This document shows, piece by piece, positions 2,023-39,862 of a DNA stretch of 64,000 nucleotides (position 1 is its first letter; the number at the start of each line of letters is the position of its first letter). The notes beneath the pieces were generated by a model that was not told where the DNA came from, searched no databases, and saw only the letters and a list, made by a program, of their open reading frames with translations. The position numbers and the translations under genes are program-made. Location of the stretch: positions 7,563 through 71,562 of the forward strand of contig JAHIRY010000017.1 in the NCBI GenBank assembly GCA_018818405.1, given 5' to 3'. This stretch comes from Patescibacteria group bacterium. GTDB lineage: Bacteria > Patescibacteriota > Patescibacteriia > UBA11705 > JABHMO01.

Positions 2023-3156
2023 ATGAAAATCGCACAAATAGTTTGCGTCCTGCCGCCGAAAGGAGGAATCGGCATGGTTGCGCACGCCTATTCCGAACAA
2101 TTGGTGGAGCGCGGACATGATGTCACCGTTTTTATTCCGGAGGAAAAGAATGGCGCGCCAAATGGAATGAAATACAAAATAAAGCAGCTCCGACCGTGTT
2201 TTCGAGCCGGACACGCCGCTTTACTGCCTCAATTTCTCTGGCGGTTAAAAGATTTTGACATTGTTCATTTGCATTTCCCGTTTTTCGGCGCCGCTTTATT
2301 TGTCGCTCTGGCAAAGAAATTCAAAAAGGACAAAATGAAGCTGGTTTTGAGCTATCACATGGATGTGGAGTTCAAAGGATTGCGCGGTTTGTATTGCAAA
2401 TTGTATTGGCGCTATTTTGTTCCGTTTATACTCGATCAAGCGGACAAAATAATCGTTTCTTCCGACGATTACATAGAAAGTTCCGATATTCAAGAATATT
2501 ATTTCAAAAATATAAATAAGTTTGTCGAACTTCCGTTTGGAGTGCCGAAAAAATATCATCCGGAAAAAAAGAACGAAGATCTTTTGCAAAAATACGGATT
2601 GCAAAGTTCTGACAAAATAATCGGATTTGTCGGCGGACTTGATTCGGCTCATTATTTCAAAGGCGTGAATTTCCTGATAAAAGCCATTTCTCTTCTGCCT
2701 GATGAATCAATCAAAGCCTTGGTCGTGGGACGCGGAAATTTGAAACAGGAATATGAAAAATTGGCAAAGGAAATGGGATTGGAATCGCGCGTGAGATTTG
2801 CCGATTCGGTTGAAAGCGCTGATTTGCCTGCGCATTACAATTTGTTTGATTATTTTGTTCTGCCGTCAATCAATAAGTCGGAAGCATTTGGCATTGTTCT
2901 TCTCGAAGCCATGGCTTGCGGCAAGCCGCTGATAGCATCATATTTGAAAGGCGTGCGTTCAGTGGTTGATCAGGGCATAAACGGACTAATGGTGGAACCG
3001 AAAAACAGCAAGGATATTGCGGATAAAATTTCATTTCTCATCAATAATCCGGAAAACGCGCGAAATTTCGGCGAGCGCGGAGTGAAAACCGTCGAAGAAA
3101 AATATCGCTGGTCAAAGATCGCGGCCAAGCTCGAGGAAATTTATAAAAAGTTGTAA
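2023..3156 (+). CDS. Glycosyltransferase family 1 (GT4-type)
   Basis: GT-B fold. C-terminal EAFGIVLLEAMACGKPLIAS... motif characteristic of the Glycos_transf_1 family. Confidence 0.8.
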   Translation: MKIAQIVCVLPPKGGIGMVAHAYSEQLVERGHDVTVFIPEEKNGAPNGMKYKIKQLRPCFRAGHAALLPQFLWRLKDFDIVHLHFPFFGAALFVALAKKFKKDKMKLVLSYHMDVEFKGLRGLYCKLYWRYFVPFILDQADKIIVSSDDYIESSDIQEYYFKNINKFVELPFGVPKKYHPEKKNEDLLQKYGLQSSDKIIGFVGGLDSAHYFKGVNFLIKAISLLPDESIKALVVGRGNLKQEYEKLAKEMGLESRVRFADSVESADLPAHYNLFDYFVLPSINKSEAFGIVLLEAMACGKPLIASYLKGVRSVVDQGINGLMVEPKNSKDIADKISFLINNPENARNFGERGVKTVEEKYRWSKIAAKLEEIYKKL

Positions 3157-3159
3157 AAA

Positions 3160-4323
3160 ATGAAAATCTGCCTCATCAGCAATTTGTACGCGCCGCATTC
3201 CCGCGGAGGAGCGGAAAAAGTCGCGGAATCAATGGCTCGCGGTTTGCGCTCCGCCGGGCAAGATGTTTTCGTAATTTCCACCAAACCGCAATTCGGATTT
3301 AAAAAAGAAATTCTCAATAATATTCCCATATATAGATTCAAACCGTTGAATCTTTTTTATTACTTGAATGATTTTAAACATAACGCGGTTGTTCGTTTGT
3401 TTTGGCATTTTATTGATATGTTCAATATGCATTCCGCATTTGTTGTCAATAAAACATTGAAAAAAGAAAAACCGGATTTTATCATCACGCACAACTTAAA
3501 AGGAATCGGATTGCTGATTCCTCTGATTGTAAAAAAAATAAAAATCAAACATTTGCATATTTTGCATGATGTTCAGCTTTCCGTTCCGTCCGGATTGATA
3601 ATAAAAGGAAATGAAAAAAGTTTTGTGGTTAACGGTCTGCCGACAAAAATTTATGAATTTTTGTGCAAAAAGTTATTCGATTCTCCCGAGTCGGTTGTTT
3701 CTCCGTCGCAATGGCTGATGGATTTTTATGTTGATAAAGGTTTTTTCTTGAATTCGAAAAAAACAATTCTGCGCAATCCGATTGATTTCATTTCCCATGA
3801 ACAAACAAGAATGCGAACAAACAAATTCCTGTTTGCCGGCCAGCTGGAAAAACACAAGGGAATTGAATGGCTGATCGACATTTGGCAAAAAAATAACATT
3901 GCTTCCGAATTGCTGGTCGCCGGAAACGGCAGTTGGTCAGCTGATATTAAAAATGAAAAAATAAAATTTCTCGGCAAATTGAATCAATCGGAATTAAACG
4001 AAGCTTTGGCTCAATCGGATTTTCTTATTTTGCCATCGCTTTGTTATGAGAATTCTCCGACAATTATTCCCATCTCATACGCCAATTCCACGCCGGTTAT
4101 AGCCGCTGATATCGGCGGAACAGCCGAACTTGTTGACGAGGGGAAAACCGGATTCATCTTTACGGCGGGGGACAGTGATTCGTTTTTGAACGCGTTTTCT
4201 CGAGCGAGATCTCTTTCACCGGAAGAGCTGACATTGATGAAAAAAAATAGTTTTGAAAAATCAGCTGATTATGATTTTAAAAAATATATCGCAATTATTT
4301 TAAATCTGCTAAAATGTAATTAG
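3160..4323 (+). CDS. Glycosyltransferase family 1 (GT4-type)
   Basis: N-terminal MKICLISNLYAPHSRGGAEK (Glyco_trans_4-like) and a C-terminal GT1 domain. Starts 4 nt after the upstream stop. Confidence 0.75.
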   Translation: MKICLISNLYAPHSRGGAEKVAESMARGLRSAGQDVFVISTKPQFGFKKEILNNIPIYRFKPLNLFYYLNDFKHNAVVRLFWHFIDMFNMHSAFVVNKTLKKEKPDFIITHNLKGIGLLIPLIVKKIKIKHLHILHDVQLSVPSGLIIKGNEKSFVVNGLPTKIYEFLCKKLFDSPESVVSPSQWLMDFYVDKGFFLNSKKTILRNPIDFISHEQTRMRTNKFLFAGQLEKHKGIEWLIDIWQKNNIASELLVAGNGSWSADIKNEKIKFLGKLNQSELNEALAQSDFLILPSLCYENSPTIIPISYANSTPVIAADIGGTAELVDEGKTGFIFTAGDSDSFLNAFSRARSLSPEELTLMKKNSFEKSADYDFKKYIAIILNLLKCN

Positions 4324-4387: not shown

Positions 4388-6928
4388 ATGCAAAAGATCA
4401 AAAAAACATTGAGAATTATTTTTAGCCGAGAATTTTGGATAGATAATCGCCGCAATATTTTTGTCGGGATTGGTATTTCTCTTGTAGGATTATTTCTTAT
4501 CGCCGGAATTATTTTTGTAGTGTATTCAAGTTTGTTTACGGAGAAAAGCAATGAACAGACAGCCGTTGAAGCCATTTCGACCGGCGGTCCGAAACTTCTT
4601 TTTCTCGGTCTCGATGGCGCGAATTGGCCGTATGTCGAAGAATTGATCGCCAAAGGACAAATGCCGAATTTCAAAAAATTGCTTGATAACGGAACCATGG
4701 GGCGGGTTAAAACATTCAATCCGCCGGTTTCTCCTCCTCAATGGACATCGGTTGCCACAGGGAAACTGCCGGCGAAACACGGGATCACCAATTTCGTTTC
4801 CACTGCCAATGGCTACAATGAATACGCGCTGGTCGGTTCCAATGACAGGCATGTAAAAGCAATGTGGAATATATTTGAAGAAAAAGGATTTAAAGTCGGT
4901 TTGCTCGGCTGGAACGCTACTTATCCTGTTGAAATGAAAACCGGCTATACTGTTTCAGATATAGCGATCGTCAATCCGAGCAAAGGAATTGAACCGGAAT
5001 CATTGCGCAATGGAATTATTGCCAACACAGCAAAAACTCTCGGTTTTACCACTTTTGCGCAGGGCGTTTCGCTGGACATTCCGGATGCGAAAGATATTAA
5101 TGATGCGGCATATTTCGAGGCTTCGCACAAGAAATTCACTCTTTTCAATGATTTGTTCAACAGTAACAGTTTGTATGCGTTCAAAAAAGAAATGCCCGAT
5201 ATATTGTTTCAAGACGACGGCGTCCTAGACGGAACTCAGCATATTTTCCTGAAATTCAAACGCCCGCAAGAATTCAAAGAATATATTGATCCTGAATTGC
5301 AAGAAAAATACGGCGATTTCGTGGATGAAGTTTATCGCTCAAAAGATAAACTGCTGGGAGAATTCATGAAGCTGTCTACGCCGGATACTCATATCATTGT
5401 ATTTGCGGATTCCGGTTTTTTCGTTGATCCCGTTTCCGGCTGGCGGTTTGATCGCTTGGATATAATTTTGGAAATGATCGGATTGTTGAAAAGAGATGAT
5501 GCGGGAAATATTGATTATTCTCAAACAATCGCTTATGAATGCGGCAATAATGATTTTGATTGGGATCGGCAGTTGTGCATAAATTTGCAAGGCAGGCAAC
5601 CCGAAGGAATTGTTCCGCAGAAAGATTATGACAAAACGGTAAACCAAAATATCGGCAAACTTGAAGCATTGAAAACCACTGACGGCGAAGGATTATTCAA
5701 TTCAATAGGAGAGGCTTTCACTGTCAATGGCGATGTCAGGTATGAAATTAAAAGATCGGTTGTGGACAAAACAGTAATTATAAATAATAAAGAATATCCG
5801 ATAAAAAAGTTTTTAACTTTATCAATAGAATCGGGCGCGCATTATGCCGATCCCGAAGGTCCTCCGGGATTTTTCATCTGGTCCGGTCCGAATATTCGCA
5901 AAGGAAATGTGATCGAAAATATGAGATACATTGATTTTGCGCCGAACATTCTTCATTCTCTCGGTTATCCGATCGGCAGTGACATGGATGGGAAATACAT
6001 TGATCTTTTATATGAGAATCCGACCGAACCGGCGTATATTCCCACATATGAAAACAATCCGAATATCATCAGTCCGATAAATAATGAAATGTTGAGAAGC
6101 AGAGACAATGAAATAGTTCAGGACAATAAGGCGACAATTTTTACCGAGGCCAATCAAACGGACAAATACAAACAATTCTGTTTTCAGTTGGGCAATAAAA
6201 ATACCGCGGTGCAAGTGGATAAAATATTCAAAGTGAATGATCCTGTCGCTTCGATTGCCACATTGCCAAACAATAAATTCGAGCCCATCGATTTTATCAA
6301 AGTTAAGAGAATCTCCGAATTGGAGAAACTTTCAACGACCGTTTTTTTGCCGAAAAATTTTGACATGGGAATAGTAACAGATAAAAGTTTTAATATTTTG
6401 GGATCTCTGGAAATAAATAAACCGACGGAAATGGGAATCTGGACGAATACATCCTTTAATCTAAATTCTCCCGGCAAAGGCGTTTTTCGCCTGATCGCCA
6501 GAGGAATAAGCATGGATGGAGTTTTCCCCATATTGGAATTTTCTCAATCCAGCGGCGTAATTGCCCGGGTAATCATTAATTCAAATGATTATCAACCTTA
6601 TGATGTGATAATTCCAGATGCGGGAAATGTTAAAATCTCATATGTTAATGACGAGTTTAATGACAAGGAAGACAGAAATTTATATATACAAATGATAAAG
6701 TTTTCCGCCAATAATATGTTTGAACCGGCGGAAGACATGGAATTTTTCATGCAGAATGATAATTTGTGTTTTTACAATAGAAATAAAGGTGTTTTCAGAC
6801 TGGAACTTTCATTGGTTCCGCAAAATCAGCCTTCTGAAACGCAGGTTGATCAGGATATCCAAAAAGCGCTTGAATTTTTGCAGACAACCGGTGAAATTAA
6901 TGACACCTCGCCGGAGCCGGCTCCGTAA
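4388..6928 (+). CDS. Membrane-anchored type I phosphodiesterase/nucleotide pyrophosphatase (alkaline phosphatase superfamily) protein with a C-terminal beta-rich domain; paralog 1
   Basis: N-terminal TM helix. LLFLGLDGANWPYVEEL...MPNFKKLLDNGTMG...NPPVSPPQWTSVATGKLPAKHGITNF matches NPP/AlkP-family metal and nucleophile motifs. About 70% identical over its full length to ORF 9123..11675. Confidence 0.7.
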   Translation: MQKIKKTLRIIFSREFWIDNRRNIFVGIGISLVGLFLIAGIIFVVYSSLFTEKSNEQTAVEAISTGGPKLLFLGLDGANWPYVEELIAKGQMPNFKKLLDNGTMGRVKTFNPPVSPPQWTSVATGKLPAKHGITNFVSTANGYNEYALVGSNDRHVKAMWNIFEEKGFKVGLLGWNATYPVEMKTGYTVSDIAIVNPSKGIEPESLRNGIIANTAKTLGFTTFAQGVSLDIPDAKDINDAAYFEASHKKFTLFNDLFNSNSLYAFKKEMPDILFQDDGVLDGTQHIFLKFKRPQEFKEYIDPELQEKYGDFVDEVYRSKDKLLGEFMKLSTPDTHIIVFADSGFFVDPVSGWRFDRLDIILEMIGLLKRDDAGNIDYSQTIAYECGNNDFDWDRQLCINLQGRQPEGIVPQKDYDKTVNQNIGKLEALKTTDGEGLFNSIGEAFTVNGDVRYEIKRSVVDKTVIINNKEYPIKKFLTLSIESGAHYADPEGPPGFFIWSGPNIRKGNVIENMRYIDFAPNILHSLGYPIGSDMDGKYIDLLYENPTEPAYIPTYENNPNIISPINNEMLRSRDNEIVQDNKATIFTEANQTDKYKQFCFQLGNKNTAVQVDKIFKVNDPVASIATLPNNKFEPIDFIKVKRISELEKLSTTVFLPKNFDMGIVTDKSFNILGSLEINKPTEMGIWTNTSFNLNSPGKGVFRLIARGISMDGVFPILEFSQSSGVIARVIINSNDYQPYDVIIPDAGNVKISYVNDEFNDKEDRNLYIQMIKFSANNMFEPAEDMEFFMQNDNLCFYNRNKGVFRLELSLVPQNQPSETQVDQDIQKALEFLQTTGEINDTSPEPAP

Positions 6929-9122: not shown

Positions 9123-11675
9123 ATGAACAGCCACATCCAAAAAATTAAAGAAATCTTTGCAAACATCTTCAGCAAAGAATTTTTCATGACAAATCGTCGA
9201 AAGATTTTAATTGCGTCAATTGTTTTCGGCAGCGCAATTATCATTGGTGGAATCGTTATTATCTTTTACTCGAATTCAGTCAATAATAGCGATATTGGCA
9301 CTCCGTTTACTGATGAAACATCTTCCATTACAGGGCCAAAACTGCTTTTCCTCGGACTTGACGGCGCCAATTGGCCGTATGTTGAAGAGTTGATTGCCGA
9401 TGGACAAATGCCGAATTTCAAAAAACTGCTTGATAACGGAACAATGGGAATGATTAAAACATTCAATCCGCCGGTTTCTCCTCCGCAATGGACATCGGTT
9501 GCCACGGGAAAACTTCCGGCAAAACACGGGATCACCAATTTTGTTTCCTCTGCCAATGGATTTAGCGAATATGCTCTGGTAGGTTCAAATGACAGACATG
9601 TAAAAGCTTTGTGGAATATTTTTGAGGAAAAAGGATATAAAGTCGGTTTATTCGGCTGGACCGCAACATATCCGGTTGAATTGAAAACCGGCTACACTGT
9701 CACAGATATTGCCGTTATAAATCCGGTAAAAGGCATTGAACCTGATTCCTTGCGAAATGGAATTATCGCCAATACGGCCAAAACTCTCGGCTTTGCAACT
9801 TTTGCTCAAGGCGTTTCGCTTGACATTCCCGATGCGCAAGATATCAATGATGCGAAATATTTTGAAGCTGCGCACAAAAAATTCACTCTTTTTAATGATT
9901 TGTTCAATGGCAATAGTTTGTATGCTTTCAATCATGAACAACCTGATATTTTATTTCAAGAAGATGATGTTCTGGACGGAACTCAACATATTTTTCTGAA
10001 ATTCAAACGGCCGGAAGAATTCGAAGAACCGATTGAACCCGCTCTGCAGGAAAAATATGGCGATTTTGTGGATGAAATATATCGGGCAAAGGACGAATTG
10101 CTGGGCAAATATATGAAACTTGCTTCGCCTGACACTCATATTATCGTATTTTCCGATTCAGGATTTTTCGTTGATCCTGTTTCCGGCTGGCGGTTTGATA
10201 AAATTGATTCAATTTTGGAATTGCTGGGATTCCTAAAAAGAGATTCGTCCGGCAACATTGATTATTCGCGGACGATTGCTTATGAATGCGGCAATAATAA
10301 TTTTGACTGGGAGCGGCGCTTGTGCATAAATTTGGAAGACCGGCAGGAAAGGGGAATTGTAGCTCAAAAAGATTTTGACAGAACGGTAAAACAAATTATC
10401 TCTGTGTTTAATTCATTGAAAACCACTGATGGTGAAAGCATATTCAAATCGGTCTCGGAAACTTTTTCCGCCAGCGGAGATGTAAAATATGACATCAAAA
10501 GATCGGTTGTGGACAAATCGATTATTCTAAACAACAAGGAATATCCGATCAAAAAGTTTTTAACTTTATCAATAGAATCGGGCGCTCATTATGCCAATCC
10601 GGAAGGTCCGCCGGGATTTTTCATCTGGTCCGGTCCGAATATACGCAAAGGAAATGTGATCGAAAATATGAGATACATTGATTTTGCGCCGAACATTCTT
10701 TATTCACTCGGTTATCCGATCGGCAAAGATATGGACGGAGAATATTTGCAATCTATGTATGTTGAGCCGAAAATGCCGGAATACATTGAAACTTATGAAA
10801 GCAATCCGAACAAACTGAGTTCAAGCAACAATGAAATGTTAAGCGGCAGAGATAATGAAATAATTTCAGAAAACAAAGCGACGATTTTCGATGATATCAG
10901 GGAAACTGATAAATACAAACAGTTTTGTTTTAATCTGGGGAATAAGAATGTCGCTGTTCAAGTCGATAATATATACAAGGTAAATGATCCAAAGGCGGCT
11001 ATCACTACCGCGGTGAACAATGATTTCGAATCCGTTGATTTTATAAAAATAAAAAAGTTGACTGATCTCGAACAAATTTCCACAACAGTAATTTCGCCGG
11101 ACGAATTTAACACCGAAATGTCAAAGGAAAACAGCTTTAATGTTTTGGGCTCGCTGGAAACTAATACTCCGGCGGAAATGGGAATTTGGACGAACATGTC
11201 TTTCACCGTTCAATCGCCCGGCAAAGGCGTTTTCCGATTGATAGCAAAAGGAACGAGCGTGGATGGCGTGTTTCCGACATTGGAATTTTCCGAGGGCGGA
11301 AAGGTTTTTTCTCGGCTTGACATCAATTCAACGGATTATCATCCGTTTGATGTGAAAATTCCAATGGAAGGAGTAATCAATATTGCCTTTGTAAATGACA
11401 AGTATAACGATAATGAAGACAGAAATATCCGCATTCAGATGATTAAATTTTCGCAAACCGGAATGTTTGAACCGGAGCAAGACATGGATTTTTTCATGCA
11501 AAACGATGAATTGTGTTTTTACAATAGACGGAAAGGCACTTACAGACTTGAAATGTCAGTGATTCCGCAAAATATTCCTTCAACCGGCGCTGAAGACAAA
11601 GATATTCAGAAAGCGCTTGAATTTTTGCAAACCACCGGAGAAATAAAAGACACTTCCACGGAATCTGCTCCGTAA
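9123..11675 (+). CDS. Membrane-anchored type I phosphodiesterase/nucleotide pyrophosphatase (alkaline phosphatase superfamily) protein; paralog 2
   Basis: Same architecture and motifs as 4388..6928 (GPKLLFLGLDGANWPYVEELIADGQMPNFKKLLDNGTMG...). Tandem paralog. Confidence 0.7.
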   Translation: MNSHIQKIKEIFANIFSKEFFMTNRRKILIASIVFGSAIIIGGIVIIFYSNSVNNSDIGTPFTDETSSITGPKLLFLGLDGANWPYVEELIADGQMPNFKKLLDNGTMGMIKTFNPPVSPPQWTSVATGKLPAKHGITNFVSSANGFSEYALVGSNDRHVKALWNIFEEKGYKVGLFGWTATYPVELKTGYTVTDIAVINPVKGIEPDSLRNGIIANTAKTLGFATFAQGVSLDIPDAQDINDAKYFEAAHKKFTLFNDLFNGNSLYAFNHEQPDILFQEDDVLDGTQHIFLKFKRPEEFEEPIEPALQEKYGDFVDEIYRAKDELLGKYMKLASPDTHIIVFSDSGFFVDPVSGWRFDKIDSILELLGFLKRDSSGNIDYSRTIAYECGNNNFDWERRLCINLEDRQERGIVAQKDFDRTVKQIISVFNSLKTTDGESIFKSVSETFSASGDVKYDIKRSVVDKSIILNNKEYPIKKFLTLSIESGAHYANPEGPPGFFIWSGPNIRKGNVIENMRYIDFAPNILYSLGYPIGKDMDGEYLQSMYVEPKMPEYIETYESNPNKLSSSNNEMLSGRDNEIISENKATIFDDIRETDKYKQFCFNLGNKNVAVQVDNIYKVNDPKAAITTAVNNDFESVDFIKIKKLTDLEQISTTVISPDEFNTEMSKENSFNVLGSLETNTPAEMGIWTNMSFTVQSPGKGVFRLIAKGTSVDGVFPTLEFSEGGKVFSRLDINSTDYHPFDVKIPMEGVINIAFVNDKYNDNEDRNIRIQMIKFSQTGMFEPEQDMDFFMQNDELCFYNRRKGTYRLEMSVIPQNIPSTGAEDKDIQKALEFLQTTGEIKDTSTESAP

Positions 11676-11799: not shown

Positions 11800-13071
11800 T
11801 TAGAAATAAATATGCCAAAGGCAAATCGCCAGCAAATTTATAACTATTCCTGAAACGGCCAAATATTTTTTGGAATATGTTAGGCTCATTATCCCCATTA
11901 TAATGCTTACAAAACCTATCAATAAAAAGAATAGTTGGCAGTTAAACGAAGCGCACACATTGCCAAACAGTGAAGATGGATAAAGCATTAAATTTTTAAT
12001 AGTTTGAGCGATCGGCCAAAACATGGCGGAAAAACTGAGCGCTAAAATTCCGTTGAAAAGCCCTAAAATAAATGAGCTGATGGCTAATCCTTGCGTGTCA
12101 GTACTTTTTGTATCTTTGGCCGCCTTTCTTTTTTCTTGTTTCAAAAAAATTGCTTTCCGTCTGATGATTATTAAAATAATAGCGAGGATGACTGCGCAAA
12201 TTGTTATAATATTGATAACTTGCTGATCAACCTGTTCAGCGGTTTTTTTCTGCCACCAGCGATCAAGTTTGAAGGCGTCAAACGGTTTCGGATCTTCCGG
12301 CAGACCGCCATGCTTAATGTATGTATATTGTCCGCTCGATACTTCAACTGTTTTTTTGACATTCAAGTCAGATACCATCAATGAACCTTCCAAAACAGTG
12401 ACCGTTGTTCCTGCTTCATTCGTTTCTACGAGGAATTCCGTTCCGGTGATGCCCAAAATTGCGTCCCGCGTTTTAACTTTCCGGCATGCTTGCCTGACTA
12501 GATTTTGTCCGACAATACAATTACCGTCATGAAACGGCTGCCATTGGTATCGGTAGCGGCCAAAAACACTTTGCACTTCATGATCTGAAACCGGAGTAAA
12601 TGTTGAATTGGCGTCAAGTTGTATCAAAGAACCGTCTGGCATAGTAATATCAATCCGTTCATTATCATCCGATTGAATCGGTTTGCCTGAAGGCAGATGG
12701 TCATACTGGAGTTGTTTCAGTTGAAAAGAAGGAGTTGTTGCAAGTTTTCCCTGAGATGCCTGTTGCGTTCTGCCGGTTTGTGAGATGGCCATGCATTGCG
12801 GCCCAAAAACTCGTCCGATGGAAGTGGTGACTTCCAAACAAAAATTATTGCCTGAATCATAAAAATGAGTATAAACAAAAGCATTATTTTCGCCGTTTCT
12901 TACCAAACAATCATTGGACAAGTTTCTTAAAACGGAAAATCCCGGCTGTGCGCCAAAATACTTGCAGGCAGCCAGCGGTGTGGCAAAATCACTGATATTT
13001 TGAGCGTTGGCATTTCCTGCAAATAAAAGAAACGCTATAAACATTACTCCAACAATATATGTTTTTCTCAT
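11800..13071 (-). CDS. Exported FecR-like domain protein with C-terminal multi-pass membrane region
   Basis: Signal peptide (MRKTYIVGVMFIAFLLFAGNANA). Central segment ILGITGTEFLVETNEAGTTVTVLEGSLMV resembles FecR/beta-sandwich sensor domains. About 4 TM helices at the C-terminus. Confidence 0.4.
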   Translation of the reverse strand: MRKTYIVGVMFIAFLLFAGNANAQNISDFATPLAACKYFGAQPGFSVLRNLSNDCLVRNGENNAFVYTHFYDSGNNFCLEVTTSIGRVFGPQCMAISQTGRTQQASQGKLATTPSFQLKQLQYDHLPSGKPIQSDDNERIDITMPDGSLIQLDANSTFTPVSDHEVQSVFGRYRYQWQPFHDGNCIVGQNLVRQACRKVKTRDAILGITGTEFLVETNEAGTTVTVLEGSLMVSDLNVKKTVEVSSGQYTYIKHGGLPEDPKPFDAFKLDRWWQKKTAEQVDQQVINIITICAVILAIILIIIRRKAIFLKQEKRKAAKDTKSTDTQGLAISSFILGLFNGILALSFSAMFWPIAQTIKNLMLYPSSLFGNVCASFNCQLFFLLIGFVSIIMGIMSLTYSKKYLAVSGIVINLLAICLWHIYF

Positions 13072-13133: not shown

Positions 13134-14726
13134 TTATTTGACGATTCTTTCCGCTTTGTAGAATCCAAGTCCGGCTGACACGGTTCCTACGAATTTACTG
13201 GTATCCTTTATCGCAAACTCCCAGACTATTTGTTTATCCGGAGTGACTTCGATAATTTTTGTTGTAGTTGCGATCAACGTATTTCCATTTGACAAGCGAT
13301 TAACATCTCTGACAGGCCATTGCTGGGGATCTGTCACCGTATATTCCCAAACAACATTTTCATTTTGGTCGATTTCAACCGCTTTTTCCGGAACTCCGTG
13401 GTTTGCAAATAATAAATTACCATTTTCAAGCAAAGCGGGATCATGCTGTTCAATCATGATTTCAGAACCTCGCGTTTTAACCACTGAGCCTTGAGGGTTT
13501 ACTTCCACCACCATATTGAAATTTCTCGGACTCACCAGAGTATTTCCGCTAGCCAATCTGGAAACCGCATTTGTATGCGACCAGCCCTGATTTTGCTCGC
13601 TCAAGTATGGTTCGGCATTGAAATAATTTTTAGCATGCCAAGACCAGACAATTCCTCCCGCGGAATTAACTTCCACCACTTGAGGGTCAGTCATCAGATC
13701 ATTATTTCCGAAAACAAAGATCGTATTCCCGTTTGCCAGTCTGTCGGCATCATGAGAAATTTTTGTCGTCTTGTAAGACCAAACGATTTGTTTGTCTCTG
13801 TTAACTTCATACACTCCGCTACCCGGACAGACAAAAAGAATATTGTCATTTGACAAGCGTTCAACATCAAATCCCGGGTTCGTGTAAGATTTCAAATCAT
13901 CGGGGAGATTATATTCCCAGATAATTTCGCCCAGCATGTTTACCTCGAGTATTCTCGGCTTTGCGGTATTATGATTATCCGCGAACAAAGTCGTTCCATC
14001 CATGACTTTGGTTTTATCGTACACATTTAAACTGAAATCAGGATCAGCCGTGCCGCGTATCATTGTATCTTCCTCGGCAACTTCCGTTTTATCTTCCGAA
14101 GAAAACTTTTCGTTCACCGGAATCAAGTCTAAATTGGCGTTTGTAATGCCCAAACTTAAAAACCTCATAATCTGATATGCGGCTTCTCCGTCTTTCATGT
14201 AATATTTTTTCCCGTCTTTTGGATTCAAATACCAGGATTCTCCGTGCGATTCAACTTGCAATAATATTCTTCCCTTCAATCTATTTATCAAAGCTGTGTC
14301 ATAAACCAATTTTCCTTCTCCCAACGGATTCGTGTTATTTACCAGAACTTCTTGGCCGTCTGATACGGAATCGCCGTCAGTATCCGCTTTGCCGGAATCT
14401 GTTTTCAATCCATCCTCCAATTGATCCGACAATCCGTCGCCATCAGTATCCGTATCGCTGAATCTCGTTTCAACGCCTACCGGTATTTTGTTTAAATCCG
14501 CATTTTTAATACCCAGTCCGAATTCTCTCAGCGCCGAATAAGCAACATCTCCGTCTTTCAAATAACTTCTCAGCAATGTCACCGGATCAACATACCAAGC
14601 TTCGCCGTTTTCTTCGACTTGCAATAAAATACTGCCGCTCAATCTTTGAGCCAATGTCGCGGCCGAAGCAACGGCTGTAATTCCCAATACTCCGACAATA
14701 ATAACCACTAAAAATTTCTTTAGCAT
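13134..14726 (-). CDS. Secreted repeat protein: duplicated N-terminal ~60-aa domain, TSP3-like Ca-binding Asp repeats, C-terminal beta-propeller (ASST/NHL-like)
   Basis: Signal peptide. Two copies of G(S/R)ILLQVE..GE.WY..P.....Y.KDG..AY...R..LGI.NA.L..IPV. DTDGDGLSDQLEDG..DSGKADTDGDSVSDGQE calcium-binding-type repeats. Repeated ..NGNT(L/I)... blades in the C-terminal half. Confidence 0.5.
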   Translation of the reverse strand: MLKKFLVVIIVGVLGITAVASAATLAQRLSGSILLQVEENGEAWYVDPVTLLRSYLKDGDVAYSALREFGLGIKNADLNKIPVGVETRFSDTDTDGDGLSDQLEDGLKTDSGKADTDGDSVSDGQEVLVNNTNPLGEGKLVYDTALINRLKGRILLQVESHGESWYLNPKDGKKYYMKDGEAAYQIMRFLSLGITNANLDLIPVNEKFSSEDKTEVAEEDTMIRGTADPDFSLNVYDKTKVMDGTTLFADNHNTAKPRILEVNMLGEIIWEYNLPDDLKSYTNPGFDVERLSNDNILFVCPGSGVYEVNRDKQIVWSYKTTKISHDADRLANGNTIFVFGNNDLMTDPQVVEVNSAGGIVWSWHAKNYFNAEPYLSEQNQGWSHTNAVSRLASGNTLVSPRNFNMVVEVNPQGSVVKTRGSEIMIEQHDPALLENGNLLFANHGVPEKAVEIDQNENVVWEYTVTDPQQWPVRDVNRLSNGNTLIATTTKIIEVTPDKQIVWEFAIKDTSKFVGTVSAGLGFYKAERIVK

Positions 14727-15007: not shown

Positions 15008-15484
15008 ATGATCAAACGCAAAAAACCGCTGAGAAAAATCATTAGCTCGAAAATTGCAAAAATAATTTTAATTTCCGGCGGAGTGATTCTTACTTCCAGC
15101 ATGTTTTTTATGTTTTATGTTGTCAGCGCTCATGAATCAACCGAAACAATCAAAGTTTTGGAAACCAGAAATGTCATCGCCACCGCATATTCCAGCACAG
15201 CCGATCAAACGGATTCCAGCCCGTGCATTACAGCCAACGGATTGAATGTTTGCGAAAACAATGAAGAAAATGTCATTGCCGCTAACTTTCTCTTCTTTGG
15301 AACAAAAGTGAAACTGCCTGAACTTTTCGGTGACAGGATTTTCATTGTTCACGATCGCATGCACAGCCGATTCGGCGGAAATCGAATTGACATCTGGATG
15401 ACAGACAGACCAAAAGCAAAAGAATTCGGAGTAAAAAGAACAAAGATGGAAATTATTGAAATTGAGGGCGATGAAATTTATTAA
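15008..15484 (+). CDS. 3D-domain (YuiC/MltA-like) cell-wall-associated protein
   Basis: N-terminal TM helix. TAYSSTADQTDSSPCITANG...GTKVKLPELFGDRIFIVHDRMHSRFGGNRIDIWM matches the 3D-domain pattern (TAY..t...G.TASG......A.D......G..v.i.g.......DtGg.I.G.riDi.). Confidence 0.6.
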   Translation: MIKRKKPLRKIISSKIAKIILISGGVILTSSMFFMFYVVSAHESTETIKVLETRNVIATAYSSTADQTDSSPCITANGLNVCENNEENVIAANFLFFGTKVKLPELFGDRIFIVHDRMHSRFGGNRIDIWMTDRPKAKEFGVKRTKMEIIEIEGDEIY

Positions 15485-15538
15485 ATTTGCAAATAATATT
15501 ACTTTCATTAAAATAATAGAAAAATAAATCAATCTTTT

Positions 15539-16480
15539 ATGCTGGGTACACCATCGATGGAACCGTTGAAACCGACAATCTGCGATTCATCTTCTGGCAA
15601 AAAAATCAAGCCGGATCAAGAATTTTTGTCGGAAAAAGCAGCCGTCAAAGAACAATTATCAGCCGAAGAAATGGAAAAAATATTGGAAACAAGGGAAGTA
15701 ATCAAAGAAATGGCGTTGGACGGCGGAGCGAATAAATCCGTTTGCATCAGATTAAAAGATGATGGGGACGCGATTTTCAAGCCCAAATCCGGAGAGAAAA
15801 TAAAATTGAGATCCGGAATTGAAGCCGGTTCGTATTTTCAAAGGGAACGCGCCGCTTATCTGGTCAGCAAATACATGGGATTTGATTTTGTACCGCCGAC
15901 CGTCATTCGAGAAGTCGGTAATGAGATCGGAAGCAGTCAGGAGTTTATTGCTGATGCGCAATTATATACTGAAAGGGTGAAACAAATTTCCTTTGCATTA
16001 GATTTTGATTATGATGTCGCGGATGAATATTTGTATTCTCAGATGGAGGGACAATTCATCAAATTATGGGTTTATGACATTGTCATTTTTAATAGCGATC
16101 GGCATGGGAATAATTTTTTGATAAAAGATAACAAGATTGTGCCGATTGATCACGGATTGTCCATGGGGGACTCGGGTCTCAAAACTTACTACTCATGTTA
16201 TGATGAGCCAATACCTGCTGATGTGCAGGATCTTTTAGAAAAATTTTCCGAATCGACTGAAAGACAATCGCAATTAAAGCAAGAACTTTTAGAAATTCTG
16301 CCCGAGGAATTGGTGGCAAAATGTTTTGCGCGAATAGACAAAGTCACTCGAATTATAATGGACAAAGGCTGTATCCCGGCGGAAGAGGAGGAAAAGATCG
16401 ATCCGTTTGATATTTCAGAACCATCGGGATTCGACGAGTTGTTTGATCTTGATTCATCTGATCGCGGTTCAATTTATTAA
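15539..16480 (+). CDS. Phosphatidylinositol 3-/4-kinase-like (atypical kinase) domain protein
   Basis: Catalytic-loop-like SDRHGNNFLI and activation-loop-like IDHGLSMG (PI3K/PI4K DRHxxN...DFG pattern). Upstream Gly-rich and Lys segment (GGANKSVCIRLKDDGDAIFKPK). No signal peptide. Confidence 0.5.
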   Translation: MLGTPSMEPLKPTICDSSSGKKIKPDQEFLSEKAAVKEQLSAEEMEKILETREVIKEMALDGGANKSVCIRLKDDGDAIFKPKSGEKIKLRSGIEAGSYFQRERAAYLVSKYMGFDFVPPTVIREVGNEIGSSQEFIADAQLYTERVKQISFALDFDYDVADEYLYSQMEGQFIKLWVYDIVIFNSDRHGNNFLIKDNKIVPIDHGLSMGDSGLKTYYSCYDEPIPADVQDLLEKFSESTERQSQLKQELLEILPEELVAKCFARIDKVTRIIMDKGCIPAEEEEKIDPFDISEPSGFDELFDLDSSDRGSIY

Positions 16481-16491
16481 TTACAAAAAAT

Positions 16492-16749
16492 ATGAAATAC
16501 GTCAAAATCTATCGTCTGCAAAATGGAGGAGAACAAAAAGCAATCGTCGAATGCAAGTTGATTGATAATGAAGTTTCGATTGACGGTGATGCGAGTTTCG
16601 TTGAATCTCTGAAGCACGAAGGCATTATTGATTATTCAGCTGAAACGGGAAAGAAACTTTTTCCGGCTGATGGCTTGAAATTCATGGAACAATTGCAAAA
16701 CAATTTCAAGTCAGGCTATCTGAATGCTTCCGCTGTTTTGGAGGAATAA
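16492..16749 (+). CDS. Hypothetical small protein
   Basis: 85-aa ORF immediately downstream of the kinase-like gene. No recognisable motif. Confidence 0.35.
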   Translation: MKYVKIYRLQNGGEQKAIVECKLIDNEVSIDGDASFVESLKHEGIIDYSAETGKKLFPADGLKFMEQLQNNFKSGYLNASAVLEE

Positions 16750-16832
16750 CCGGTTTGTGCAAAAATAATCCGCACTTGATTTTTTTTGTGAATCGATTTA
16801 TAATTTTATGATAACAAATTCCAATAGCTAAT

Positions 16833-16982
16833 ATGAAATGCATTGTCTGTGAAAAAGAAATTTCAGCCGATGAACTCATTGAAAAACATGATGTGAATTT
16901 TTGCTGTGAGAATTGCGTTTCGGATTATGAGAAAAAGCTGGAAGAATTGTCATCTGTGGTGGATTGGGATAATTGCTGTTAA
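16833..16982 (+). CDS. Possible small zinc-ribbon protein (about 49 aa)
   Basis: ATG...MKCIVCEKEISADELIEKHDVNFCCENCVSDYEKKLEELSSVVDWDNCC with CxxC...CxxC spacing. Below the ORF-track size cutoff. Coordinates approximate (hand-counted). Confidence 0.3.
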   Translation: MKCIVCEKEISADELIEKHDVNFCCENCVSDYEKKLEELSSVVDWDNCC

Positions 16983-17007: not shown

Positions 17008-17457
17008 ATGAAAAATTTCATTTTGGAAAATAATGACGGAACGCCGTTCGATCTGTATCAATATCAGGGCAATGAAAATTTGCTCATGATTTTTTTTCGC
17101 GGAGCTTGGTGCAATCATTGCAAAAAACAATTGCGGGGAATCAATAATTTGTCCGCCTATTTTGAAAAACTCGGAATGAGGATTGTCGCGGTTTCCTCTG
17201 ACACAAAGTTCAAATCCAGCTTGCTGAAGAATTTTTTAAAACTGAAATTTCCCGTAATTTCGGATTCGAACTTTGAAATTATTGACAGCTTTGATTTGCG
17301 CACTCGCTATAAAGAAGCTGAAGTGGCAAAACCGGCTGTGTTTATATTTTCGCCCAATCATGAAATTTTATTTCATTATATCGGAGAAAATTACGATGAT
17401 CGTCTATCCGGCCGCGCGATTCTGCTGGAAGCGGAAAGATTGCAAAGAAATGGCTAA
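17008..17457 (+). CDS. Thioredoxin-fold peroxiredoxin/redoxin (AhpC/TSA family)
   Basis: MKNFILENNDGTPFDLYQYQGNENLLMIFFRGAWCNHCKKQL: WCxxC redoxin motif. Track ORF 16906..17457 starts at a GTG in the overlap with the zinc-ribbon ORF; the internal ATG is the more likely start. Confidence 0.7.
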   Translation: MKNFILENNDGTPFDLYQYQGNENLLMIFFRGAWCNHCKKQLRGINNLSAYFEKLGMRIVAVSSDTKFKSSLLKNFLKLKFPVISDSNFEIIDSFDLRTRYKEAEVAKPAVFIFSPNHEILFHYIGENYDDRLSGRAILLEAERLQRNG

Positions 17458-38596: not shown

Positions 38597-39862
38597 CTAG
38601 GCGTCGTCACCGTCCTCGGAGTACCGACCCCGCCGCTGCCACCCGCCCTGGCGCTGGGGCGAGCCGCGGCCGAGCCGCTCGGATCCGCGGATACGAGCCC
38701 GGAGCCCCTCGGCCTTCTGGCGCGCCGCCTCTCGCCGCTTGCGATCCTCTTCTCGCTGGACGAACCAGCGCGCGAAGAGAATCGCCTGGACGGCGTTGAA
38801 GGGGGTGAGAACGGAATCACAGTGGATGTCCTGAAGGAGCTTGAAATCCTCCTTCATCACCACCGCGTACGTCGCCTCGTCCCCACTCAGACGCTTCACG
38901 ACGATCGCCTGCCTGGAGAACGGGATGACCCGTCTCGTCCCCTCCGCCGCACCCGCGAGGTAATTGGGGTCTAGCACCTGCTTTACCCACAACCACCAGT
39001 CGCCGGGCGACTCGATGTTTGCGGACTTGACCCGGGTCTCGTAGACCCGGAGGTAGGGGGGAAAGACGCTCTCGAGCGCCGACTTGCTCGGCGCATCGAT
39101 CTCGCCGGCGGCCGGCTTGAGATCGAGCGGGTCGAGCTTCGCGAGTGCCTCGAGGCTCACCCAAGACTGCTCCCAGTCGACCGTCTTGAGGACGGCCAGC
39201 CGTTCGAAGCGCGCCTCCTCCTCCTTGCGGAGGCGGAGGATGCACTCGGTGAGAGCCTCGGGCCTGACCGTGGTGCGCCGCTCCTCGGAGAGGAGCCGGG
39301 CGACCATGGTCGCGTTCGCAGAGCTGAAGAAGCGATCCTTCCCCTCGAACCACACGACGCGAACGTCGTTCGGCTCGAGGTTCATCGGCTCGTCCTCCTC
39401 GGTCGACAGGTAGTCGACGAGGTGGCCGTCCTCGGGCAGGCTGACGGACACATCGAGGCCGAAGCGCTCGATGTAGTGGGGCAGGCTGGAGATGAGGATC
39501 GGGGAGTTGTCCCCGGCGGGGGCGGGCTGGACGGTCTCGGTCTCGGCGGGGTGGGAAACGATGTCGGCGGTCGGGGACTCGGTGGTGGTCGGGATCTCGG
39601 TGGCGGGCTTGGGGGACAGCATGGTAGCCTCCTCGGACTTGTTGGTGTTCTGCTTCTGCTTGCGGATCTCTTCAGCGGCCTTCCGCCTTTCGGCGGCGGC
39701 CGCTTCATTCTTCACCTGCTCGGCACGGCGTGCGGTCTTTCGAACCGCCTGCCGCTCCAGAGCTTCGGCCTTCTTCTGCGCCTTGGCGGCGACAGAAGGG
39801 TCTGGCTTCTTGTCCTTCTTCTTGTTGTCCTTGTTGTTGCCTTCTTCCTTCTTGCGTCCCAT
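38597..39862 (-). CDS. Hypothetical protein encoded in a ~65-70% GC island (charged Lys/Glu/Arg-rich tails, unknown core)
   Basis: 421-aa ORF (by eye far GC-richer than its flanks, roughly two-thirds G+C against ~35% background). N-terminus MGRKKEEGNNKDNKKKDKKPDP, C-terminus RGSPQRQGGWQRRGRYSEDGDDA. Numerous spurious overlapping ORFs on both strands, as expected for stop-poor GC-rich DNA. Confidence 0.45.
   Translation of the reverse strand: MGRKKEEGNNKDNKKKDKKPDPSVAAKAQKKAEALERQAVRKTARRAEQVKNEAAAAERRKAAEEIRKQKQNTNKSEEATMLSPKPATEIPTTTESPTADIVSHPAETETVQPAPAGDNSPILISSLPHYIERFGLDVSVSLPEDGHLVDYLSTEEDEPMNLEPNDVRVVWFEGKDRFFSSANATMVARLLSEERRTTVRPEALTECILRLRKEEEARFERLAVLKTVDWEQSWVSLEALAKLDPLDLKPAAGEIDAPSKSALESVFPPYLRVYETRVKSANIESPGDWWLWVKQVLDPNYLAGAAEGTRRVIPFSRQAIVVKRLSGDEATYAVVMKEDFKLLQDIHCDSVLTPFNAVQAILFARWFVQREEDRKRREAARQKAEGLRARIRGSERLGRGSPQRQGGWQRRGRYSEDGDDA

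Follow-up and report, generated by a model that had tools for sequence, protein, structure and literature searches.

A small type II PI4K-like kinase and a conserved 85-residue partner recur as a two-gene cassette in Patescibacteria

Kinases of the type II phosphatidylinositol 4-kinase (PI4KII) kind are regarded as eukaryotic membrane-traffic enzymes, and PI4KIIalpha is anchored to its membrane by a CCPCC palmitoylation insert and an aromatic activation-loop segment. Here we describe a predicted kinase of this kind, together with the small gene that follows it, in the candidate phyla radiation (CPR), whose members are episymbionts. Both genes lie in a 64,000-nucleotide (nt) stretch of a Patescibacteria group bacterium genome (assembly GCA_018818405.1, contig JAHIRY010000017.1, positions 7,563 to 71,562, forward strand), hereafter the window. 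The closest bacterial family with a name is “SCO1664” (NCBIfam model TIGR03843), whose genes are accompanied in some phyla by genes for a histidine phosphatase (His_Phos_1) and for DUF3090; SCO1664 itself counts as a signature protein of the actinobacteria and is always found linked to mshC, the mycothiol (inosityl-glucosamine) gene (PMC4255298). We found no characterisation of SCO1664, TIGR03843, DUF3090 or a CPR phosphatidylinositol (PI) kinase in the literature. The SCO1664/TIGR03843 sister family was already known; what is new here is the CPR kinase/partner pair, which is apparently undescribed.

The kinase is present in the NCBI database as an identical protein, KKC32_01515, annotated “hypothetical protein” of a Patescibacteria group bacterium, which confirms the CPR origin. 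The gene and the segments on which its assignment turns are, in window coordinates:

15539..16480, + strand: kinase gene, 313 amino acids (aa), ATG start; minimal type II PI4K-like (PF00454) atypical kinase
15716..15733, + strand: Gly-rich loop L60-D-G-G-A-N65, family consensus LxGGxN, aligned to the GSSGSY nucleotide-binding loop of PI4KII
15779..15781, + strand: K81 (codon aag), the predicted ATP-anchoring lysine in IFKPK, invariant and aligned to GVFKPK of PI4KII
16097..16114, + strand: catalytic loop D187-R-H-G-N-N192 (DRHxxN), aligned to NTDRGNDN of PI4KII
16148..16156, + strand: D204-H-G, the predicted metal-binding “DFG-equivalent,” family consensus AIDNGLSF versus AIDNGLAF in PI4KII (aligned to 4wtv/9hhm)

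A first-pass annotation, made from the letters alone, had given the open reading frame (ORF) with exact coordinates and had named its motifs correctly (SDRHGNNFLI lies at aa 186-195, IDHGLSMG at aa 203-210 and LDGGAN at aa 60-65), but had placed the second motif 10 residues after the first, where the IDHG segment starts 8 residues past the end of SDRHGNNFLI. From D187 to D204 the distance is 17 residues; the corresponding DRH-to-DFG spacing in class I phosphoinositide 3-kinases (PI3Ks) is about 18. An alignment of 18 homologues (27-42% identity) shows no variation at K81, D187 and D204, and N192 is likewise invariant in the CPR-only kinase alignment; identity to the nearest relatives is 35-42%. 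M7, at position 15557, aligns with the starts of the homologues and may be an alternative, possibly the true, start of the protein.

Against Pfam the protein matches PF00454 (PI3_PI4_kinase) over aa 162-250 (E=1.6e-9, 38.5 bits), above the gathering score of 27.1; because this score is exceeded and K81, D187 and D204 are invariant, the DRHxxN and IDHG motifs are not there by chance. When the single sequence was used to search the PDB, the type II PI4Ks alone were significant (4wtv, E=0.0045), and with the family profile both lobes were aligned (PI4KIIbeta 4wtv, E=9.6e-18; PI4KIIalpha, E=1.8e-14), the segments GiFKPK, ERAAYLV, DRhggN and AIDNGLsF of the profile pairing in the same order with GVFKPK, SEAGAYLV, DRGNDN and AIDNGLAF of PI4KII. 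The FAM20 kinases follow in that search (E~1e-11 to 1e-6; FAM20A, E=4e-11).

Comparison of folds gave the same ranking. The AlphaFold2 (AF2) model, a confident one (mean per-residue confidence, pLDDT, 85.3; predicted TM-score, pTM, 0.81), has a core at approximately aa 42-285 and disordered ends (aa 1-36 and ~290-313), and predicts a bilobal protein-kinase-like fold. Foldseek searches of the PDB with this model placed PI4KIIalpha/beta at all of ranks 1-12, headed by PI4KIIalpha 4hnd (E=1e-9, query-normalised TM-score, TMq, 0.57), followed by a second tier of Fam20A/C (1e-6), H. pylori CtkA (3.6e-6) and then class I/III PI3Ks; there were 154 fold matches at E<=0.001, and those listed among the best 50 are almost all PI4K, Fam20, CtkA or PI3K. 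Membership of the class I-III PI3Ks or of the PI3K-related kinases (PIKKs) was considered and set aside as marginal (mTOR E=0.13 by profile; PI3K folds at TMq ~0.33), and the window kinase matched no HipA Pfam family, nor Fam20C in Pfam.

Given the Pfam cut-off passed, the profile match to PI4KII, the match of the AF2 fold and the invariance of K81, D187, N192 and D204, the window protein is best classed as a PI3K/PI4K-superfamily kinase, nearest to the eukaryotic type II PI4Ks and with the key catalytic residues kept. This upholds the central proposal of the first-pass annotation, a PI3K/PI4K-family atypical kinase; a profile-based reassignment to the aminoglycoside phosphotransferases or HipA, which it had named as the outcome that would count against the proposal, did not emerge from the profile searches.

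The likeness to PI4K2A and PI4K2B (4hnd, 4wtv) comprises the bilobal fold and, in order, the Gly-rich loop, the FKPK lysine, the E-AAYLV helix, DRxxxN and IDNGL, but identity is only ~19% and the core spans ~250 aa, as against ~350 or more in PI4KII. The window kinase lacks a CCPCC palmitoylation motif, contains only one Trp and shows an 8-residue profile gap opposite the aromatic YPFHWAWL of PI4KII; unlike these enzymes, it is a bacterial, acidic and soluble protein encoded with a small partner protein. The second-tier relatives, Fam20/Golgi casein kinase and H. pylori CtkA, score below PI4KII, and the Fam20 enzymes differ from the window kinase in belonging to the secretory pathway and carrying extra domains. 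Since these next-best structural matches include Fam20 kinases and CtkA, protein substrates are common near this fold, whose neighbourhood phosphorylates proteins and sugars besides lipids.

The question of how widely such kinases are distributed in bacteria was addressed by searching 1.84 billion representatives exhaustively with HMMER, which returned 11,226 matches at E<=1e-3, 5,392 at E<=1e-10 and 648 at E<=1e-30, all counted as 50%-identity representatives; most are standalone proteins of 240-300 aa. A word-indexed profile search found at least 6,307 90%-clusters at E<=1e-10, and the only names among them are “hypothetical,” “SCO1664 family protein” and “TIGR03843 family.” The window kinase has its nearest relatives in GTDB representative genomes (30-41% identity) among the Staskawicz-, Davies-, Azam-, Sung-, Woese- and Saccharibacteria; Chloroflexota and Actinomycetota come after these CPR lineages. 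The first-pass annotation had described such domains as bacterial rarities, known mostly from effectors; neither statement is supported by a family with 5,392 representatives, members in CPR, Chloroflexota and Actinomycetota and an NCBIfam model for its sister branch. The window kinase instead represents the CPR branch of a very large, widespread and uncharacterised Terrabacteria kinase family.

TIGR03843 matches the window kinase over aa 56-285 (E=4.4e-24) with 85.2 bits against a cut-off of 172.4; the protein is homologous to this equivalog yet lies outside it. The two groups are homologous over the whole domain (hhalign between the CPR clade and the SCO1664-type clade, E=1.2e-43, 206 columns), and both consist of standalone proteins of ~250-290 aa from Terrabacteria, uncharacterised in function. 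They differ in the catalytic loop, DRHxxN in the CPR clade and DRKGGH in the SCO1664-type clade, and in their score against solved PI4KII structures (64.7 bits for the CPR clade and 29.4 bits for the SCO1664 clade). A neighbour-joining tree of the kinases separates the CPR clade, which has an 85-aa partner, cleanly from the Chloroflexota/Actinomycetota clade, which has DUF3090. Among the branches compared here, the CPR kinases are the bacterial branch most similar to the eukaryotic type II PI4Ks.

The two clades also differ in their company: the partner of the window kinase is an 85-aa protein encoded downstream, whereas in Chloroflexota/Actinomycetota loci the His_Phos_1 and DUF3090 genes precede the SCO1664-type kinase. 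This conserved trio is seen across loci L017-L062 (for example L019:4653-6723), and by analogy its arrangement resembles a kinase-substrate-phosphatase set; none of the three proteins is characterised in the literature searched. DUF3090 in these loci carries an invariant C-terminal CxxC...HxC pattern, which may be a Zn site. DUF3090 is absent from the whole window and from the CPR loci, and with it the neighbourhood of His_Phos_1, DUF3090 and kinase.

Some relatives are giant proteins with several kinase domains. P0123 (Nocardia sp., 2892 aa), P0374 (4371 aa) and P0020 (metagenome, 3184 aa) have 3-4 PI4KII-like kinase domains each. Besides these, P0123, annotated “alpha/beta hydrolase,” contains GDPD, a pair of Abhydrolase_8 domains and a toxin domain of the papain-fold glutamine-deamidase type, and a mate in its cluster bears the annotation of RHS-associated core protein; in P0020 the kinase domains number four and are joined to DUF4347. 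These giants look like polymorphic-toxin-type architectures that use this kinase fold, and their kinase domains are related only distantly to those of the CPR clade.

The second gene of the cassette directly follows the kinase gene:

16492..16749, + strand: partner gene, 85 aa, acidic and soluble, 11 nt 3' of the kinase stop
16711..16719, + strand: S74-G75-Y76 of the partner (codons tca ggc tat), in the loop after helix 2, invariant in 42 sequences

When the ORFs of 19 CPR loci were clustered, only the kinase and the ~85-aa downstream ORF recurred, and no other neighbour was common to more than two of the loci. By tblastn the small ORF lies on the same strand, directly 3' of the kinase, in 15 of the 19, with a gap of -16 to +20 nt. 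The look-up in the reverse direction, from the partner, found a PF00454 gene directly upstream on both of two independent long contigs. The cassette is probably co-transcribed and translationally coupled, and occurs once in the window. In L081 (positions 2518-4020; a CPR genome, JGI contig of 523 kb) the cassette kinase is 500 aa long, with a Pfam kinase stretch at aa 103-175 and no Pfam match in the remainder; there the cassette stands between mreB-mreC-(unknown)-archease and an epimerase, which is followed by PBP2.

The partner family, apparently CPR-specific, comprises at least 250 clusters at E<=1e-3, all of 83-101 aa; where a source is named, as for a few clusters, it is a Patescibacteria/CPR lineage and the protein is called hypothetical. 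At 45-62% identity the partner is better conserved than the kinase (35-42%), and the mean column identity across CPR classes is 52-59%; invariant residues include Q15, C21, G32, G44, G61, F64, S74-G75-Y76 and A79. Its AF2 model is confident (pLDDT 93.3) and has the order beta-beta-beta-alpha ... alpha-beta. Thirteen members searched against Pfam gave scattered single matches only and no family, the sequence profile found nothing significant in the PDB (best E=0.07), and the fold had no significant relative in the PDB (Foldseek best E=0.17) or in BFVD (best E=0.039). Taken together, these observations suggest a previously unnoticed, structurally novel alpha/beta protein that is paired with the kinase across CPR. 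A shortened DUF3090 was ruled out (hhalign probability 0.13%), and a redox pair of cysteines, C21/C30, tied to the nearby AhpC gene was dropped because C30 is not invariant (Ile in the window copy) and AhpC is not conserved beside the cassette. We could not identify any partner-kinase fusion (“Rosetta-stone” protein) among 158 kinase-family proteins; the longer members of the family have N-terminal extensions without a Pfam match.

Where the two proteins would act can be judged from their composition and surroundings. Both are acidic (pI 4.56 for the kinase, 4.95 for the partner) and have no transmembrane (TM) or signal-like segment. Pfam analysis of the pooled neighbours of the cassette, 79 proteins from 16 CPR loci, returned mostly housekeeping functions (PNPase domains, ribosomal proteins S7, S12 and L20, PheRS, ClpP, CTP synthase and NifU); no Pfam family occurred in more than three of the 79, and there were no integrase, transposase or secretion genes among them. 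PADLOC returned only short local matches for the kinase (~50 aa, E>=3.5e-5) and none for the partner, giving no indication of membership in a defence system. In these housekeeping surroundings, kinase and partner are best read as cytoplasmic proteins.

On balance we favour, at even chances, a two-gene cassette that serves as a small, internal, housekeeping phospho-regulatory module of kinase and partner, as opposed to a secreted, host-directed lipid kinase. The kinase would act inside the CPR cell together with the 85-aa protein. Either the partner would itself accept the phosphate, for which the invariant S74-G-Y76 loop is the candidate site, or it would serve as a subunit for specificity or regulation and bring another cellular substrate to the kinase; we weigh these two as about equally likely, and S74-G75-Y76 is accordingly put forward as a candidate phospho-acceptor or docking motif. 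We lean towards a protein-centred module because the trio of the sister clade resembles, by analogy, a set of kinase, substrate and phosphatase. A bolder form of the proposal, which we hold only tentatively and think rather improbable, is that CPR as a whole possess an undescribed phospho-signalling pair in which a minimal kinase phosphorylates, or is steered by, a new-fold 85-aa protein, or, in its strongest version, that the kinase is a true PI 4-kinase of prokaryotes whose substrates are inositol lipids, either scavenged or of the host.

Several observations weigh against an internal, protein-directed module. Gene adjacency is the sole link of the kinase to the partner, and two CPR loci with same-clade kinases (L008 and L011) have no 85-aa partner in their sequenced flanks. 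In sequence as well as in fold, the characterised proteins nearest to the kinase are lipid kinases, and the CPR clade is nearer to PI4KII than the SCO1664 clade is (the 64.7 versus 29.4 bits given above). No phosphatase is adjacent to the kinase in the CPR loci. The giant relatives fuse kinase domains with GDPD, lipase-like and toxin domains, and some members of the family look like lipid-acting effectors. The invariance of S74 and Y76, finally, could be purely structural.

The strongest competitor is a genuine lipid kinase, that is, a prokaryotic type II PI4K acting on PI or another inositol or glycerol lipid of its own (scavenged) or the host membrane, with the partner as a lipid-presenting or membrane-targeting subunit. 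We regard this as unlikely, though PI4KIIalpha/beta are the best matches of the kinase in sequence and fold, and the family consensus AIDNGLSF is almost identical to AIDNGLAF of PI4KII. Fusion of the kinase domains to GDPD and alpha/beta-hydrolase domains in the giant Nocardia relative points the same way, as does the occurrence of the family in Actinomycetota, which make PI (PMC4255298), and their relatives; for at least one Saccharibacterium, moreover, synthesis of PI and PI-mannosides is predicted (PMC6031116), and such PI biology in some Saccharibacteria favours a lipid substrate. The window kinase, however, is without the membrane devices of PI4KII (no CCPCC, a single Trp, the 8-residue gap at YPFHWAWL) and is an acidic, soluble protein (pI 4.6) with no hydrophobic segment. 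No lipid-metabolism gene recurs beside the cassette in the flanks of the CPR loci, and a lipid kinase would leave the conserved partner unexplained. It also counts against this explanation that we know of no kinase-generated phosphoinositide in bacteria.

A type II toxin-antitoxin or an abortive-infection pair, in which a HipA-like kinase toxin would phosphorylate an essential target and the 85-aa protein would neutralise it as the antitoxin, has in our estimation a small probability. As in HipA/HipB and HipBST, a PI3/4-kinase-like Ser/Thr kinase and a small protein share one operon, and no wider context is conserved; the kinase has weak local matches to PDC-M03A (a candidate defence kinase in PADLOC, E=3.5e-5) and to the phage family phrog_3162, which has no assigned function, some of its relatives weakly match HipA_2, and the fold matches include the HipA-like kinase CtkA. 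Unlike these systems, the window kinase has no HipA Pfam match, and its partner is encoded downstream, is acidic and has no fold match of helix-turn-helix or ribbon-helix-helix type. The partner is also unusually conserved across CPR classes, whereas antitoxins evolve fast, and the cassette is present in one copy per window among core housekeeping flanks without integrases or transposases. Membership in an anti-phage defence system was rejected, the PADLOC matches being only weak and local.

The first-pass annotation had instead raised a possible role in interaction with the host; the corresponding explanation is an effector, secreted or delivered by contact, that would modify lipids or proteins of the host in episymbiosis. 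The lifestyle of CPR as episymbionts is in its favour, and polymorphic-toxin-like giants place kinase domains beside a glutamine-deamidase toxin domain, with a cluster mate annotated as RHS core. Effectors with PI3/PI4-kinase-like domains are found in host-associated bacteria, namely Legionella (LepB/LegA5) and Rickettsia (Risk1) (PMC9758233, PMC7298712). They are large, secreted proteins of intracellular pathogens, whereas the window kinase has no secretion features and showed no specific similarity to them in our searches. We found no positive evidence for such a role: the kinase has no signal peptide or TM segment, its pI is 4.6, the flanks in the 16 CPR loci are of the housekeeping kind with no recurring secretion-system or pilus genes, and it is closely paired with a conserved, small, intracellular-looking protein. 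Its sister SCO1664 occurs in free-living Streptomyces and Chloroflexota, in a metabolic or housekeeping setting beside mshC, DUF3090 and a phosphatase. An effector is in our view very doubtful; the idea is kept in consideration because kinase domains of this type are joined to toxin and lipid-enzyme domains in giant, distant relatives. Export of the kinase by a non-classical CPR route is conceivable.

Equally poor are the prospects of a small-molecule kinase, with a sugar, an inositol-containing metabolite or an antibiotic as substrate and the partner as carrier or sensor. The fold neighbourhood does include the Fam20B xylose kinase, and the actinobacterial sister gene is always linked to mshC (PMC4255298). 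Against such a kinase, no metabolic gene co-occurs in the CPR loci, nothing points to a specific metabolite, and CPR are not known to have mycothiol pathways.

The window has a G+C content (GC) of ~39%, one tRNA-Trp and no rRNA. Upstream of the cassette, an ORF of 158 aa (15008-15484) has phage-peptidase-like PHROG matches only and no Pfam match at E<=0.01; on the opposite strand further upstream are a beta-propeller/ASST-like protein and a FecR-domain protein. Downstream, a TRASH-like Zn-ribbon ORF (16833-16982) and an AhpC/TSA redoxin (17020-17457) are followed by QueA, two receiver-domain proteins and AMMECR1. The Zn-ribbon and redoxin genes had been recognised in the first-pass annotation, whose “3D-domain” cell-wall gene is plausible and was not confirmed by Pfam. 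None of these neighbours is conserved beside the cassette in the other CPR loci. A wider cell-envelope neighbourhood was considered from the 3D-like gene here and from mreBC/PBP2 or M23 in L081/L083, and is unsupported by the scan of the 79 flanking proteins. Two promoter-like sites were found, by consensus scan only and both weak:

15487..15514, + strand: TTGCAA-16-TAAAAT, 25 nt upstream of the kinase ATG
16776-16804: second promoter-like site, just upstream of the next gene

Their positions, before the kinase and before the gene that follows the cassette, are consistent with the cassette as its own transcription unit.

Several other genes of the window deserve mention. The opposite-strand pair upstream of the cassette consists of a 530-aa protein (13134-14726, - strand) with an N-terminal hydrophobic segment, TSP3 (Ca-binding) repeats and an arylsulfotransferase-like beta-propeller, and, just downstream on the same strand, the FecR-domain protein (11800-13071, - strand). 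Two paralogous proteins of ~850 aa (4388-6928 and 9123-11675, both + strand) contain PF01663 type I phosphodiesterase/nucleotide pyrophosphatase domains, one of them with a CBM60-like segment, and may be large surface or secreted enzymes for scavenging nucleotides or phosphoesters. A 421-aa ORF (38597-39862, - strand) without a Pfam match has charged termini rich in Lys, Glu, Arg and Ala; because its GC is 0.58-0.70 against ~0.39 for the genome, it looks like foreign DNA, acquired by recent horizontal transfer or joined as an assembly chimera.

The bacterial homologues of the type II PI4Ks, of the SCO1664/TIGR03843 type, number in the thousands and are without an assigned substrate. The CPR branch offers a smaller version of the enzyme, nearer to PI4KII than its sister branch and accompanied by a single, highly conserved and novel partner, and the cassette is thus a tractable two-protein system for learning the role of this bacterial kinase family. 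If neither a partner substrate nor an inositol lipid substrate is borne out, the window kinase would be an ordinary member of an annotated yet uncharacterised family. Should the partner prove to be the substrate, the pair would add a new phospho-regulatory module to organisms in which very few regulators are known; with an inositol lipid as substrate, the kinase would count as a phosphoinositide kinase of prokaryotes, present in ultra-small episymbionts and with a bearing on the origin of eukaryotic PI4KII, the evolution of PI signalling and the exchange of lipids between episymbiont and host.

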